DNA of 64,000 bases. It comes from Escherichia coli (GTDB lineage: Bacteria > Pseudomonadota > Gammaproteobacteria > Enterobacterales > Enterobacteriaceae). The DNA is taken from assembly GCF_001677475.2 (NCBI RefSeq), contig NZ_CP015229.1; one strand, written 5' to 3'. This document shows, in pieces, positions 7,046 through 48,979 of this stretch; within the stretch, counting starts at the first letter, position 1, and the number at the start of each line of letters is the position of its first letter. The notes under the pieces were generated by a model. The model ran no database searches, was not told the origin of the DNA, and worked only from the letters and a program-made list of their open reading frames with translations. Made by a program: the position numbers and the translations under genes.

Positions 7046-8581
7046 TTAGTGTTTCTTGTCATTCATCACAATATAGTGTGGTGAACGTGCACGCGGGTGC
7101 AGGAAGAAGTGACCTTTTGGTGCGTTCTGACTGTTGATTGGCTCCAGAGTGACGCCGGTATTCGCTTTGCCTTTACGATCATGAACAGCATAGAGAATAA
7201 AGGGCAGGGCAAGTACCACCAGGAAACTAACGACCAGTAATTCAACATACATATCGGTAGAGTCACCCTGGATGTTATCCGGCGGCAGGAAGGAAACAAT
7301 AAACGCCATAATTGAAGTCAGCAGACCGACAATAGCCACGACCAGTTTCACCCCTTTACCACCAGGGATATTAAATGTGCGTTTTAAGTCAGGATGTTTA
7401 AGAACCAACACAATGTAGCCAATAAACAGCATGAAATAAGCACACAGATAAATCACCACCGTCAGCGCCAGTGCGATCAGGAAGGACATGTTGTTACCGC
7501 CACCGGTATTGGTGAGGATGATCAACGCGATAGAAGTAATCACCAGCTGCGAAATGACCAGCGTTACCGGTACGCCATTTTTGTTCATTTTAGCGAATGC
7601 CGCTGGCAGCAGGTTTTTCTGCGCTGTGACATACATCCCGCGAGAAGGACCAACAATCCAGGAGGCGATTTCCGCCAAAACACCCAGCAACAACAGTGCG
7701 GAGATCACGCGAACCGTCCACTCAATTTCCGGTGCCACATGGGACATCAGAACGGTAAAGGTTTGCATTACCCCTGCGGAGAGGTTGATTTCATTACCCG
7801 GAATGACCATCGCAATAGACAAACCGCCAACAGAGCTTAAGCAGATTGCCGCCACCATCAGCAGTAACATAGCCAGTGGATAGTCGCGCCCGGGGTTGCT
7901 CATTTCATTGACGTGAGTTGCGGAAGCTTCTACGCCCATATAACTCAAAATGAAGGCAACAAATACAACCAGGGTGCCCACTTTAGAGAAGTCAGGGAAG
8001 AAGGTCTTCGAATCCATTTCGATAGCAACGGGGGCACCGGAGTGCAGATAAATAGCCGCTAATGCGATCAAAATAAATGCAGGTAACAGGATACCGGCGA
8101 AGAAGCCAACTTTAGCAATTCGTGCCGTGTATTTCGTGCCACCAAACTGCGTTAATGCCAGCGCCCAAAGAATGATGAGTGCTGCAATAGTTTTGGTAAT
8201 GGGGTCTTCATTCAGCGCTGGCCATTTCAGGATGTAGGAGAGTGCCCCTAACACGAAATAGAGCATCGGAATAAAACCAATGGCGATTTGCAGATAGCCA
8301 AATGAGATCGCTGCAAATCCCCATCTCGGCCCCAGAGTATTTGATACCCAGGCGAAGACACCACCTTCTTCCCAGCCGTCGACGGTGGCCATTTCCGCAG
8401 CACAAAGTCCCACGGGAATAAACCATAAAATCCCGCCTAATAGCAGGAAGAAGACTAATGAAAAGCCCGATGTTGCGAAGGTAGGGTATTCATAAACAGC
8501 CATTACCATCGATGCCGTTATGGCAAAAAAGCCGAGTAATGTGAGCTGCTTAGCTTTACCTGTCTGTACTGATGTAGCCAT
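7046..8581 (-). CDS. gadC: Glutamate:GABA antiporter
   Basis: 511-aa polytopic membrane [39 protein letters not shown]... recognised as GadC. Confidence 0.92.
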
Positions 8582-44570: not shown

Positions 44571-46163
44571 CTATAACCCAGGCGCTTTCCATAACGACGT
44601 CGTCAGTCCATGATCAACCAGCCCCAGCTGATCCTGATAAACTGCCTGCCACTTATCGCGTGAATCCTGATAAAGTTCATGCTTTTTCGGGTCTGGTGTG
44701 TGCGTCCGTTCCCAGCGAACCAGGCGTTCTCCGGTTTCTGCCATTGATGAAAAAATTCCGGCACCGACGCCAGCTGCAATGGCACATCCTAATGCAGTGG
44801 CTTCTTTGACCACCGGAATATTGACGGGTAATCCCGAGACATCAGCGAGAATTTGACTCCATAATTTCCCTTTTGAACCTCCACCTGCAAAGACTAACGA
44901 TGAAGGATGAATATTCGAGAAATCAGCAATTTGCTGCAAGTTACACGCTGATACAATCGCCGCATTTTCTTCCAGCGCACGGAACAATGTCGCTTTGTTA
45001 CATTTATCCGGGTCAATAGACAAATTAATAAAGGAAGGTGCAGCGTGATACCAAGTTTTAAAGCGCATTCTGTCGGAGAATATCGGCATTACGCCCCACG
45101 ACCCAGGCGGCACACGACTGGCCATCTCTTCCAGCAACGTATAGGTGTCGATGCCTAAACGTTCGGCAATCAGTTTTTCTTCGGCACAGAAAGCATCGCG
45201 AAACCAGCGCATGGTGAGTCCGGTAAAAAAGCTTATAGATTCAGCTTGTACCATGCCAGGAATAACATGGGGATTAACGCGCACGTTCATTTCTGGGTCT
45301 GTCGCCGGCGCGGCTAAGTTTACAACTTGCTGCCAGAATGTGCCGCCAAGAACAGCGGTTTGTGCCGGACGCACAACGCCTAACCCCAGGCAACCAAGCT
45401 GCACGTCGCCTCCTCCAACGACCACAGGAGTGCCCACCTTCAGACCGCAGAGTTCCGCCGCTTGTGAACTTACCACGCCCAGCAATGTGCCGGTTTCTTT
45501 GACAGGAGAAAGAATATCGGCACGCAGGCCAGCCATATCCAGCAATGCAGGTTTCCAGTCACGGGTGGTTAGATCAAGAAGTCCCGTGGTGCCAGCGTTA
45601 GAGGGATCCACCGCAAGTTCGCCGCTGAGCATATAGGCCAGCCAGTCGCTGATCATGGTGATGGTTGATGCCTGACGGTAAATATCGGAACGATGGTGCG
45701 CCAGCCAAAGTAATCTGGGGATGGCACTTAAAGCCAGCGTTTGTCCGGTCGCGCGATAAACTTCGTTTTCAAAGGTATTGTTGTGCAGTTCTTTAAGTTC
45801 GCTAACTTCGCGCGCCGCTCTGGCATCCACATTGGCGCAGGCCCAGATCGGTGTTCCTTCATTGTTATATAAAACAATGCCTTCACGCATCGAACATGCC
45901 GAAACGGCAGCGATATACTCAGGGGCTATGCCGGCGTTGTGCAGCGCCTGGCGCATACACTCACACGCCAGTTTCCAGTTTTTGTTGAGATCAAATTCCA
46001 TAGAACCAGGAACGTCCGGTACTGCCAGATGCTGCCACTCCGCCTGTCCCACTGCTATTTGATTGCCTTCCAGGTCGAATATCACAGCCCGAATACTTCC
46101 GGTGCCTGCATCCAGCGCCATAAGGTAATACTTTGATTCTGAAGGGGTAAAGAGTCGAGCCAT
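44571..46163 (-). CDS. lsrK: Autoinducer-2 kinase
   Basis: 530-aa FGGY-family kinase [33 protein letters not shown]… recognised as LsrK. Confidence 0.92.
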
Positions 46164-46241: not shown

Positions 46242-47195
46242 TTAACTACGTAAAATCGCCGCTGCTGTATCCTGATCGGTAACCAGTGCGTTGATATAAC
46301 CGCCTTTCATTGCAGCAGCAATTGCTTCGGCTTTATTTTCTCCCCCTGCCACGCCAACCCGGACGGGTATGGTCTTCAGCGCGCTTAAAGGTAAGCCAAT
46401 CAGTTCGTTATGTATTTTAATATCCGTGACAACGTCACCTTTTGCATCAAAAAAGTAGCCTAAAATGTCGCCAACTGCACCTTTTCGGCCAATCATTAAC
46501 TGTTCGCCCTGGCTGATATAGCCGGAGCGAATGATTGTCGCGTCGTCTTGTTGACTCACGGCCCCAATGCCGACAATCGCCACATCCGCTGCTTGCGCGG
46601 CTAACAGAACATCTTTGACGCAATTTTCATTTTTTAGCGTACGGGCAATATCAGCGGAGGATGCCCGCAGCGGAGCCGGAATAATATTCACACTGCACGC
46701 CGCGTTAAGCTGCCCGATACCCGTCATATAAGAACCGACGCCACCGGAGAGCGTGACCAGGCGAATTTGCTGTGACGAAATAAAACCACTTAAGCGTTGC
46801 AGCGTATTCATGGTTGCCTCGCCAAAACCAATCGCCAGCATCTGTTGTGGTTGAAGTAAACTCATCAACATATGCGCCGCGCCTATCCCTAGTCGCCCGC
46901 CGACATCAGCATCCGCAAGCCCAGGGATCACCCGGACATGTTGCAGCGAAAACTGACGACGTAATTGTGTTTCATGTTCCAGACAGCCTTCAAAGCGAGA
47001 ATTAATCTGCACGCGAATAATGCCGGACTGATGCCCTTTTTCCAGTAATCGCGACACTTTCAAGCGAGTCAGCCCGAGACGATCGCTGATCTCGCTCTGG
47101 GTCAGCCCGTCGTGGTAGTAAAACCACGCGATCCGCGCGACCTGTTCTTCTTCACACATTCCCTGTTCTGAAATTGCCGAATCGTTGATTGTCAT
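46242..47195 (-). CDS. lsrR: lsr operon repressor (SorC family)
   Basis: 317-aa ORF with N-terminal HTH; divergent from lsrA. Confidence 0.92.
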
Positions 47196-47211
47196 AATTC
47201 ATTCTTCACTT

Positions 47212-47244
47212 TGAACATATTTAAATCTTTAATGCAATTGTTCA
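47212..47244. promoter_or_regulatory. Palindrome TGAACA-N21-TGTTCA, lsrR-proximal; candidate LsrR operator
   Basis: tgaacatatttaaatctttaatgcaattgttca in the lsrR-lsrA intergenic region. Confidence 0.5.
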
Positions 47245-47379
47245 GTTCTTGCGCATTTATATCTGTGATAGCAACCACAGTTTGACTCTACGAGCATGAA
47301 CAAACGCAACCGTGAAAATCAAAATAGCATAAATTGTGATCTATTCGTCGGAAATATGTGCAATGTCCACCTAAGGTTA

Positions 47380-47412
47380 TGAACAAATTAAAAGCAGAAA
47401 TACATTTGTTCA
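47380..47412. promoter_or_regulatory. Palindrome TGAACA-N21-TGTTCA, lsrA-proximal; candidate LsrR operator
   Basis: tgaacaaattaaaagcagaaatacatttgttca, about 30 bp upstream of the lsrA start. Confidence 0.5.
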
Positions 47413-47443
47413 AAACTCACCTGCAAAACTGAACGGGGGAAAT

Positions 47444-48979
47444 ATGCAAACGAGTGATACCTGCGCGTTACCGCTACTTTGCGCCCGCTCGGTTTATAAA
47501 CAGTATTCAGGGGTCAATGTCCTGAAAGGCATCGATTTTACGTTGCACCAGGGGGAAGTCCACGCCCTGCTTGGCGGCAATGGTGCCGGTAAATCGACGT
47601 TAATGAAGATTATTGCCGGTATTACCCCTGCTGATAGCGGTACGCTGGAGATTGGGGGCAATAATTACACCAGATTAACGCCAGTTCATGCTCATCAGTT
47701 GGGCATTTATCTCGTTCCCCAGGAACCGCTGCTTTTCCCAAGCCTGTCGATAAAAGAAAACATCCTGTTTGGACTGGCAAAAAAACAGCTCTCCATGCAG
47801 AAAATGAAGAACTTGCTGGCGGCTCTGGGCTGCCAGTTTGATCTGCATAGTCTGGCAGGATCGCTGGATGTCGCCGATCGCCAAATGGTGGAAATCCTCC
47901 GCGGGCTGATGCGCGACTCGCGGATTCTGATCCTCGATGAACCTACCGCCTCGCTTACCCCTGCGGAAACCGAACGCTTGTTTAGTCGCTTGCAAGAGCT
48001 GCTTGCTACTGGCGTGGGTATTGTTTTTATCTCGCATAAGCTGCCGGAAATTCGCCAGATTGCCGATCGAATTAGCGTGATGCGCGACGGAACCATCGCC
48101 TTAAGCGGCAAAACCAGCGAACTGTCTACCGACGACATTATTCAGGCCATCACGCCAGTGGTACGGGAAAAATCGCTCTCTGCCAGCCAAAAATTATGGC
48201 TGGAGTTACCTGGTAACCGCCCACAACATGCCACCGGAACGCCGGTGCTGACACTGGAAAATCTGACCGGCGAAGGTTTCAGGAATGTCAGCATGACGCT
48301 CAATGCCGGAGAAATTCTGGGCCTGGCTGGGCTGGTGGGAGCCGGACGCACAGAACTGGCCGAGACGCTATATGGTCTACGTACTTTGCGTGGCGGACGC
48401 ATTATGCTGAATGGTAAAGAGATCAATAAATTATCCACTGGAGAACGTTTACTGCGCGGTCTGGTTTATCTGCCGGAAGATCGCCAGTCATCCGGACTGA
48501 ATCTCGATGCTTCGCTGGCCTGGAACGTCTGCGCCCTTACTCATAACCTTCGTGGATTCTGGGCGAAAACCGCGAAAGAAAATGCCACCCTGGAACGTTA
48601 TCGTCGGGCGCTGAATATTAAATTTAACCAACCGGAACAAGCTGCACGGACATTATCCGGTGGCAACCAGCAAAAAATCCTCATTGCCAAATGCCTGGAA
48701 GCTTCGCCGCAAGTATTGATTGTCGATGAGCCGACGCGCGGCGTGGATGTCTCGGCGCGTAATGATATCTACCAACTGTTGCGCAGCATCGCAGCACAGA
48801 ATGTGGCTGTGCTGCTTATCTCCTCTGATCTGGAAGAGATCGAACTGATGGCAGATCGCGTGTATGTGATGCATCAGGGCGAAATTGCCCACTCTGCACT
48901 GACCGGGCGCGATATTAATGTCGAGACCATTATGCGCGTTGCCTTCGGCGATAGTCAGCGTCAGGAGGCGTCATGCTGA
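47444..48979 (+). CDS. lsrA: AI-2 ABC transporter ATP-binding protein (tandem ATPase)
   Basis: 511-aa ORF with Walker [10 protein letters not shown] and a second nucleotide-binding domain. Confidence 0.92.

Follow-up and report, generated by a model that had tools for sequence, protein, structure and literature searches.

The region between the divergently transcribed lsrR and lsrA genes of Escherichia coli carries two palindromes of the form TGAACA-N21-TGTTCA, and judging from sequence comparison these are almost certainly the operators of the repressor LsrR. The reading that we favor, and to which we assign a probability of roughly 0.85, is that each palindrome would be occupied by one LsrR tetramer, that the two bound tetramers would block both of the CRP-dependent promoters in the region, and that they would be released by phospho-AI-2. 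It draws on the sequence features, their conservation, the fixed spacing between them and the protein homology described below. A first-pass annotation of this DNA had already proposed that the palindromes are LsrR operators, and the proposal is supported by the published p-lsrR-box, by conservation of the palindrome in 68 of 68 loci, by homology to DeoR and by the lack of RNA covariation. The control region of the lsr operon is itself already known, its LsrR boxes from Xue et al. (2009) and its CRP control from Wang (2005), both as represented in papers that cite them. Since the action of LsrR and CRP at this site has been established since 2005–2009, the finding is a confirmation and not a discovery.

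The window, by which we mean the whole stretch of 64,000 nucleotides that was analyzed, contains the genes of the lsr system in their divergent arrangement. On the minus strand are lsrK (44571..46163), an open reading frame scoring above the NCBIfam autoinducer-2 kinase equivalog cut-off, and lsrR (46242..47195), whose 317-residue product is a repressor of the SorC/DeoR subfamily and reaches 618 bits in its NCBIfam equivalog against a cut-off of 486. On the plus strand lies lsrA (47444..48979; 511 residues), the first gene of lsrACDBFG, with 956.6 bits against an equivalog cut-off of 586, and lsrC comes after it among the open reading frames of the window. The RefSeq annotation concurs with the calls of lsrR and lsrA, and the 248 bp between these two genes are precisely the interval 47196..47443. 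LsrR encoded here is 99% identical to K-12 b1512 and also to the proteins of PDB entries 4GO1 and 4L5I. The intergenic region is likewise 99% identical to that of K-12 MG1655, and the only two differences, at 47253 and 47270, are outside the palindromes. A 901-bp stretch across lsrR and lsrA was matched, with annotation as lsrR/lsrA, in 4,204 complete genomes out of the 5,426 available for E. coli, and the 248-bp intergenic region was found in 4,178 E. coli genomes, with an identity of at least 99% in 3,364.

A pattern search located the two palindromes at precisely the coordinates given in the first-pass annotation, one beside each of the divergent genes, as had also been claimed. The lsrR-proximal palindrome, predicted operator O1, occupies 47212..47244 and reads TGAACATATTTAAATCTTTAATGCAATTGTTCA, and the lsrA-proximal palindrome, predicted operator O3, occupies 47380..47412 and reads TGAACAAATTAAAAGCAGAAATACATTTGTTCA; each is an exact instance of TGAACA-N21-TGTTCA. 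They are the only two exact instances on both strands of the 64 kb, where none is expected (none occurred in 100 dinucleotide-preserving shuffles), and when one mismatch is allowed a single unrelated match is added at 7555, with 0.16 expected. In direct register O1 and O3 are 76% identical, and their starts are 168 bp apart. The O3 palindrome in E. coli extends further than the hexamers and reaches arms of 13 nt (47376-88 and 47404-16).

Conservation was followed in a comparison set of 80 Enterobacterales lsrR loci, with LsrR identities of 64–97%, of which 68 have lsrA divergent and adjacent. None of these 68 lsrR–lsrA intergenic regions lacks the N21 palindrome when one mismatch is tolerated, and the O3 position is filled in every one; O1 is kept with at most one mismatch in 36 of the comparison loci. 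The motif is strongly confined to this place, as shown by 142 N21 matches (one mismatch or fewer) within 760 nt around the lsrR start of the 80 loci against a single match in 409 kb of flanking sequence. The spacer length is also characteristic: spacers other than N21 gave close to zero matches, apart from 15 cases of N20 at the middle site described below, mainly in Yersinia. A symmetrized profile of 114 distinct sites reads TGAACAatT...AatTGTTCA, with invariant hexamers and an interior that is merely A/T-rich, and at O3 the hexamers do not vary among 31 diverse sequences. When the intergenic regions of 15 genera were aligned, the sequence between the operators was found to have diverged almost totally save for a few islands, and the conserved islands of the whole alignment are O1, two CRP half-sites, a GGTTTTAT block, a TAnnnT hexamer and O3. 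The lsr regions of Salmonella and Klebsiella also carry the N21 palindrome. Extension of the motif to the lsr loci of alpha- and beta-proteobacteria was considered and rejected, as the palindrome was not found in the four such loci examined, where TGATCA and TGAACA motifs are arranged otherwise.

How a repressor could read such a long palindrome is suggested by its relatives. Besides LsrR itself, the nearest proteins of solved structure are SorC and Bacillus subtilis DeoR (8R7Y, E = 5e-28). The DeoR operator of dra-nupC-pdp is ATTGAACAAAATTTCAATTACCAATTTACATATGTTCAA (PMC11229326; PDB 8R7Y), which can be read as TGAACA-N24-TGTTCA. The full DeoR operator is bound by one tetramer, a dimer of DNA-binding-domain dimers, isolated half-operators are left unbound, and arginines R34 and R39 contact bases within TTGAACA; LsrR is structurally very similar to DeoR and is also tetrameric, as in the apo-LsrR tetramer 4GO1 (PMC11229326). 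In a HMMER alignment the ISRPTVSRLL segment of DeoR is aligned to LsrR, and on the basis of this alignment R34 and R39 of DeoR correspond to R44 and R49 of LsrR, both of which are kept without exception in 16 diverse LsrR sequences. From the DeoR operator and its tetramer, the structure of CggR (PMC11229326), the similar LsrR tetramer and the conserved arginines, we infer one LsrR tetramer per 33-bp palindrome, and by this analogy a single tetramer most likely binds each palindrome and reads the outer hexamers directly. LsrR scores 158.7 bits in the DeoR equivalog, far under the cut-off of 420.

The likeness of the two systems thus consists of the common outer half-sites TGAACA...TGTTCA with an A/T-rich interior, and of a tetrameric repressor whose base-contacting arginines are conserved in LsrR. 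On the other hand, DeoR acts at a single operator located at -60..-21, whereas LsrR would have two or three phased copies distributed over two divergent promoters, and the effector is deoxyribose-5-phosphate for DeoR and phospho-AI-2 for LsrR. The spacer is 24 bp in the DeoR operator and 21 bp in that of LsrR, and this difference of 3 bp is a point against the analogy of one tetramer per site. A search for inner DeoR-like TTCAA signatures in each half-operator was given up, since the profile contains only A/T richness there.

Two putative CRP sites lie between the operators. The first-pass annotation had reported a CRP-like pair of half-sites there, imperfectly matching the consensus, and it was right in both respects, but its interval 47274..47289, which actually contains ACCACAGTTTGACTCT, is wrong by 10 nt. 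The true pair, predicted CRP site II, is TGTGATAGCAACCACA at 47264..47279 and agrees with TGTGA-N6-TCACA at 9 of 10 core positions. Such a match carries little weight in itself, as the window holds 19 matches to this consensus with up to two mismatches where 28.7 are expected, that is, no enrichment; the significance of CRP site II comes from the conservation of its position in other genera and not from its fit to the consensus. In all 36 loci having O1, xGTGA begins exactly 19 nt past the end of this operator. The predicted CRP site I, TGTGATCTATTCGTCG at 47335..47350, agrees at 6 of 10 core positions, its left half being perfect and its right half, CGTCG, degenerate, and here xGTGA begins ahead of O3 by 45 bp in 52 of the 68 loci and by 46 bp in another 12. 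Across the 15 genera, GTGATC of CRP site I and GTGA of CRP site II are invariant. Of the pair of CRP sites that the literature reports for this region, the first-pass annotation had noticed one and overlooked CRP site I.

The geometry of these sites points to the positions of the promoters. On the lsrA side, the hexamer TAAGGT at 47372..47377 on the plus strand is the putative -10 element, TAnnnT being found from 8 to 3 nt before O3 in nearly all 68 loci. Transcription of lsrA would then start near 47384, with CRP site I centered at -41.5 and O3 covering about -4..+29. On the lsrR side, the putative -10 hexamer is AACAAT at 47237..47242 on the minus strand, in the arm region of O1, where CAATTGTTC is invariant across the 15 genera; the start would be near 47230, with CRP site II at -41.5 and O1 covering about -14..+19. 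In both cases the CRP core and the -10 hexamer are 37 nt apart. Both promoters would accordingly be of class II, dependent on CRP and occluded by LsrR. CRP-dependent expression of lsr, together with conserved predicted CRP sites, is described in a 2026 preprint, and the lsr promoters have been reported as CRP-dependent and weak (PMC5137460; 2026 preprint). The class II model fits this reported dependence and weakness as well as the lack of a strong consensus promoter. A scan for the sigma-70 consensus gave no promoter at threshold in the intergenic region, which fits a weak CRP-dependent promoter and gives no position, and the Cappable-seq supplements contain no entry for the lsrR–lsrA region.

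One published 5' end bears on the lsrR start. Kim et al. (2012) recorded, with 3 reads, an end at K-12 position 1599272, equivalent to 47202 in the window. A start at this position would place CRP site II at -69.5, against the class II model for lsrR, and is compatible with an alternative lsrR promoter, TTGCAT-N17-CAAAGT, which also lies beneath O1. We have not built on 47202, because no good -10 hexamer is found at the usual distance from it and because the resulting leader would be 7 nt long without a ribosome-binding site.

In the mechanism that we propose, LsrR would read the outer TGAACA and TGTTCA directly, and its contacts to the A/T-rich interior of 21 bp would be made chiefly via the backbone. 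Because the putative core promoter of lsrR lies partly under O1 and the putative start of lsrA lies under O3, LsrR bound at the two operators would block RNA polymerase at both promoters. Phospho-AI-2, the product of LsrK, would release LsrR, and cAMP-CRP would be needed in addition, acting from site II on lsrR and from site I on lsrA. As the least certain step, the bound repressors may cooperate across one face of the helix, given 168 bp or about 16 turns between them. Binding of LsrR to lsr promoter fragments and its relief by phospho-AI-2 have been reported (PMC8487509; PMC5137460), and LsrR binding to the region, tetramer formation and CRP dependence are taken here from the literature, while the occupancy of each palindrome by a single tetramer, the placing of the promoters and cooperativity are our own deductions.

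The comparison set reveals a third operator position, O2, midway between the other two. Counting upstream from O3, O2 where present lies at 83–85 bp (40 loci) and O1 at 166–168 bp (36 loci), so that the operator spacings amount to about 8 and about 16 helical turns; unlike these spacings, the stretch separating O3 from the lsrA ATG is variable and ranges from 43 to 207 bp. The positions are used in different combinations. All three are present within one mismatch in Salmonella enterica, Serratia sp. H1w and Entomohabitans, and Kluyvera and Superficieibacter also possess the full set, O2 there departing by two mismatches. Only O1 and O3 occur in Pantoea, Rahnella, Hafnia and Klebsiella, and only O2 and O3 in Yersinia, Photorhabdus, Xenorhabdus and Morganella, which lack the lsrR-proximal O1. 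In E. coli the middle position corresponds to 47297..47329, where TGAACA is intact (47297..47302) and the right arm, ATAGCA, has 4 mismatches; moreover ATGAACAAA at 47296..47304 is an exact duplicate of the left arm of O3. The middle operator of E. coli is, by these marks, a vestigial third site that has decayed. The first-pass annotation had passed over this third position.

The palindromes may be compared with the boxes defined in earlier work, according to which LsrR represses both lsr transcription units via two "boxes" (Hauk et al., 2016; PMC5137460). The order given there is p-lsrR-box, CRPII, CRPI and p-lsrA-box (Fig. 2 legend of PMC5137460), and the p-lsrR-box, at -237..-197 from the lsrA ATG, corresponds to 47207..47247 in the window, so that it encloses the whole of O1. 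Its critical motifs, which PMC5137460 gives after Xue et al. (2009) as AACAAT and AAGATTTAA, are both found within O1 on the minus strand, at 47237..47242 and 47221..47229. On the lsrA side, the motifs AAAACT and AAAACTGAA are quoted from Xue et al. (2009) by PMC8487509, from the same laboratory, and in the form quoted they map to the plus strand at 47412..47417 and 47425..47433. These motifs of the p-lsrA-box (47412..47433) lie directly downstream of O3 and share a single nucleotide with it, 47412. Comparison with the published operator mapping, which had been suggested as a check, therefore comes out differently on the two sides: O1 falls inside the p-lsrR-box, but the lsrA-side motifs, as they are quoted, abut O3 and are not inside it. 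The published E. coli boxes and the present palindromes share the locus, the repressor and the arrangement of one site per divergent gene; the published boxes are short A/T-rich motifs, whereas the element described here is a palindrome of 33 bp. LsrR sites are described in the E. coli literature as A/T-rich with little common sequence, for example NNNTTTTNN--NNNTTTTNN (PMC8487509). In the literature searched, to which Xue et al. (2009), RegulonDB and RegPrecise did not belong, neither a TGAACA operator nor a palindromic operator was found for LsrR, and the SorC structural paper was the one relevant result.

It is conceivable from the motif positions that the LsrR contacts on the lsrA side are AAAACT and AAAACTGAA themselves, with O3 auxiliary or coincidental. 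PMC8487509 does quote these motifs as LsrR boxes, at second hand, and AAAACTGAA includes part of a fourth TGAAC half-site (47430..47434). The motifs are, however, unconserved even in Citrobacter in the 15-genus alignment, whereas the palindrome at O3 is present in 68 of 68 loci with invariant hexamers, and on the lsrR side the published motifs sit inside the palindrome; furthermore, replacement of AAAACT would also damage O3, because its first base belongs to the TGTTCA arm. We consider this reading unlikely. Less probable still is that O3 acts as an RNA hairpin in the 5' untranslated region of lsrA that affects mRNA stability or translation. A start near 47384 would indeed put most of O3 in the transcript, and its RNA folds at -9.3 kcal/mol with a z-score of -3.55 relative to shuffled sequences. 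The equivalent RNA of O1 folds no better than chance (z -0.19), a 6-bp stem closing a loop of 21 nt is unstable, and no Rfam match was obtained; among the 31 O3 sequences only the hexamer pairs persist, four of them fully invariant, the outer pairs break in about half or more, and no covariation measure exceeds the shuffled controls. We give equally little credence to the idea that the protein bound to the palindromes is not LsrR but another regulator, for example CytR or a global factor, or that they are simply promoter elements molded by divergent transcription. A CytR half-site has been proposed in the region (PMC5137460), and a promoter element may be embedded in O1 (AACAAT/TTG), but the proposed CytR motif at 47357..47364 is outside both palindromes, and the palindrome accompanies lsrR across Enterobacterales while being essentially missing from the flanks. 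Because it co-occurs with lsrR in this way, has the half-site of DeoR and meets a protein in which the contact residues are conserved, another binding protein is unlikely.

With the palindromes read as LsrR operators, the remaining question is whether they act together. The spacing is constant and helically in phase, and in several genera a middle operator is upstream of both promoters, and for these reasons the arrangement suggests that the bound LsrR tetramers cooperate. Multiple phased operators are a feature of CRP-dependent sugar operons such as lac (O1/O2/O3), gal (OE/OI) and E. coli deo. Like lsr, these pair a specific repressor with cAMP-CRP, space their operators by whole turns and place an auxiliary operator ahead of the promoter; the difference is that looping or cooperativity of LsrR is deduced solely from conserved phasing. 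The operators might instead be independent, their spacing reflecting only the rigid geometry of two back-to-back CRP promoters, with neither LsrR–LsrR cooperation nor looping, and we give this reading a substantial chance, somewhat short of even. The separation between an operator and its own CRP site is indeed fixed (the CRP site follows O1 by 19 nt and precedes O3 by 45 bp), the Hill coefficient of DeoR on its full operator is slightly below 1 (PMC11229326), and no link between LsrR and looping was found in the literature searched. Independence leaves unexplained why the distance from CRP site II to CRP site I is constant although the intervening sequence has almost fully diverged, and why a third operator lies exactly midway, upstream of both promoters; every spacing, moreover, is near a whole number of helical turns. 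O1 mutations that raise expression in the lsrA direction (PMC5137460) were considered as evidence of looping and rejected, because both the selection and the assays were performed in LW6, a ΔlsrR strain, and are uninformative on LsrR.

Taken further, the functional LsrR element would be the 33-bp DeoR-related palindrome and not the A/T-rich motifs, and up to three such operators, phased at 8 turns, would be filled by cooperating tetramers to produce a switch-like response to AI-2; this combined proposal is a tentative one, to which we give rather less than even odds. Cooperation through looping or a higher-order assembly would be the step that makes the response switch-like. If the proposal is true, the LsrR targets that have been claimed from AACAAT-like motifs (katG, ahpCF, cysP) need to be re-examined. 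To what was known of the region the present analysis adds a consensus for the operator, in which the hexamers are invariant and the spacer is fixed at 21 bp, the link to the DeoR operator, a fixed geometry of promoter, CRP site and operator, a second CRP site and the phased layout of three operators, and it points out that the motifs published for the lsrA side do not coincide with the conserved O3 palindrome. Among enteric bacteria the lsr switch serves as the model of AI-2 quorum sensing, and it has been reused in synthetic circuits; the consensus and geometry offer precise engineering targets in the lsr promoters and a sharper test of proposed members of the LsrR regulon. The phased layout, in turn, raises the testable question of repressor cooperation.

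A last observation concerns the sequence TGTGCAAT at 47357..47364 on the plus strand, which was proposed as the CytR half-site mentioned above, is the site of promoter-up mutations and was described as 'very close to the CRPI box' (PMC5137460). In our own reading, both of the reported up mutations would shift TGCAAT (47359..47364) towards TATAAT.

Comparison of lsr intergenic regions revealed a third operator position in the middle of the region, corresponding to 47297..47329 in the window. An intact copy of this middle operator occurs in Salmonella, Serratia sp. H1w and Entomohabitans, where it lies 83 bp from each neighbouring operator; in the Salmonella locus L082 the operators are at intergenic positions 42, 125 and 208. 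In E. coli only the half-site ATGAACAAA is left of it, while Yersinia, Photorhabdus, Xenorhabdus and Morganella possess the middle and lsrA-proximal operators without the lsrR-proximal one. The four alpha- and beta-proteobacterial lsr loci compared (L084–L087; Sinorhizobium pSymB, Thalassospira, Roseateles, Alloyangia plasmids) retain the divergent lsrRK/lsrACDB layout, and the N21 palindrome was not found in them. Since their intergenic regions instead contain TGATCA and TGAACA motifs, such as ATGTTCA-N13-ATGAACA directly upstream of lsrA, the sequences suggest that the same half-site is used there in another operator geometry. Elsewhere in the window, the operator pattern is nearly matched just once more, at 7555..7587 (TGACCA...TGTTCA, one mismatch, G+C-rich spacer). 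This is probably not an operator site, since about 0.16 such matches are expected by chance.

The promoter-up mutations described by Hauk et al. (2016; PMC5137460) change TGTGCAAT into TGTACAAT or TGTGTAAT. Both changes bring the hexamer TGCAAT (47359..47364) nearer to TATAAT, and a -35-like element, GTGATC, is located 17 nt upstream of this hexamer. Creation of a stronger -10 hexamer offers a simpler reading of these mutations than loss of a CytR site. The same authors reported mutations in the region of O1, the putative lsrR-proximal operator, at TAATGCA (47230..47236), which overlap a second TGCAAT (47233..47238) positioned 16 nt downstream of TTGAAC (47211..47216). Because these mutants were selected in a ΔlsrR host, it is likely that their mutations, too, create promoters and act independently of LsrR.

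The motifs published for the p-lsrA-box, AAAACT and AAAACTGAA (47412..47433), follow the conserved palindrome directly on its downstream side, and already in Citrobacter they are no longer conserved. A fourth TGAAC (47430..47434) is contained in AAAACTGAA and adjoins the lsrA ribosome-binding site; the 248-bp region has six TGAAC pentamers in total. This ribosome-binding site, together with the start codon, forms the second copy (47438..47446) of an exact 9-nt repeat, GGAAATATG, whose first copy (47350..47358) starts an eight-codon ORF encoding MCNVHLRL (47356..47382). As other genera carry GGTTTTAT at the position of the first copy, this repeat is Escherichia-specific.

At the other end of the region, Kim et al. 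(2012) list in a supplementary table an lsrR 5′ end at K-12 position 1599272 (3 reads), which corresponds to 47202 on the minus strand; the annotated ATG is just 7 nt downstream. In LsrR orthologues Met13 hardly ever varies and residues 1–12 show no conservation, so the true start codon or leader of lsrR may be worth re-examining. Two residues set the LsrR encoded in the window (46242..47195) apart from the K-12/PDB sequence: H74 in place of Y and D258 in place of N.

Among 5426 complete E. coli genomes, about 1250 lack the intergenic region, and in some of these its last 49 nt alone are left, adjoining an autotransporter gene. When the complete genomes were searched with a 901-bp sequence, the closest match was 98.9% and 14 records reached at most 60–80% identity, representing a divergent lsr type; some genomes possess two copies, and three of the matching places are plasmid-borne.
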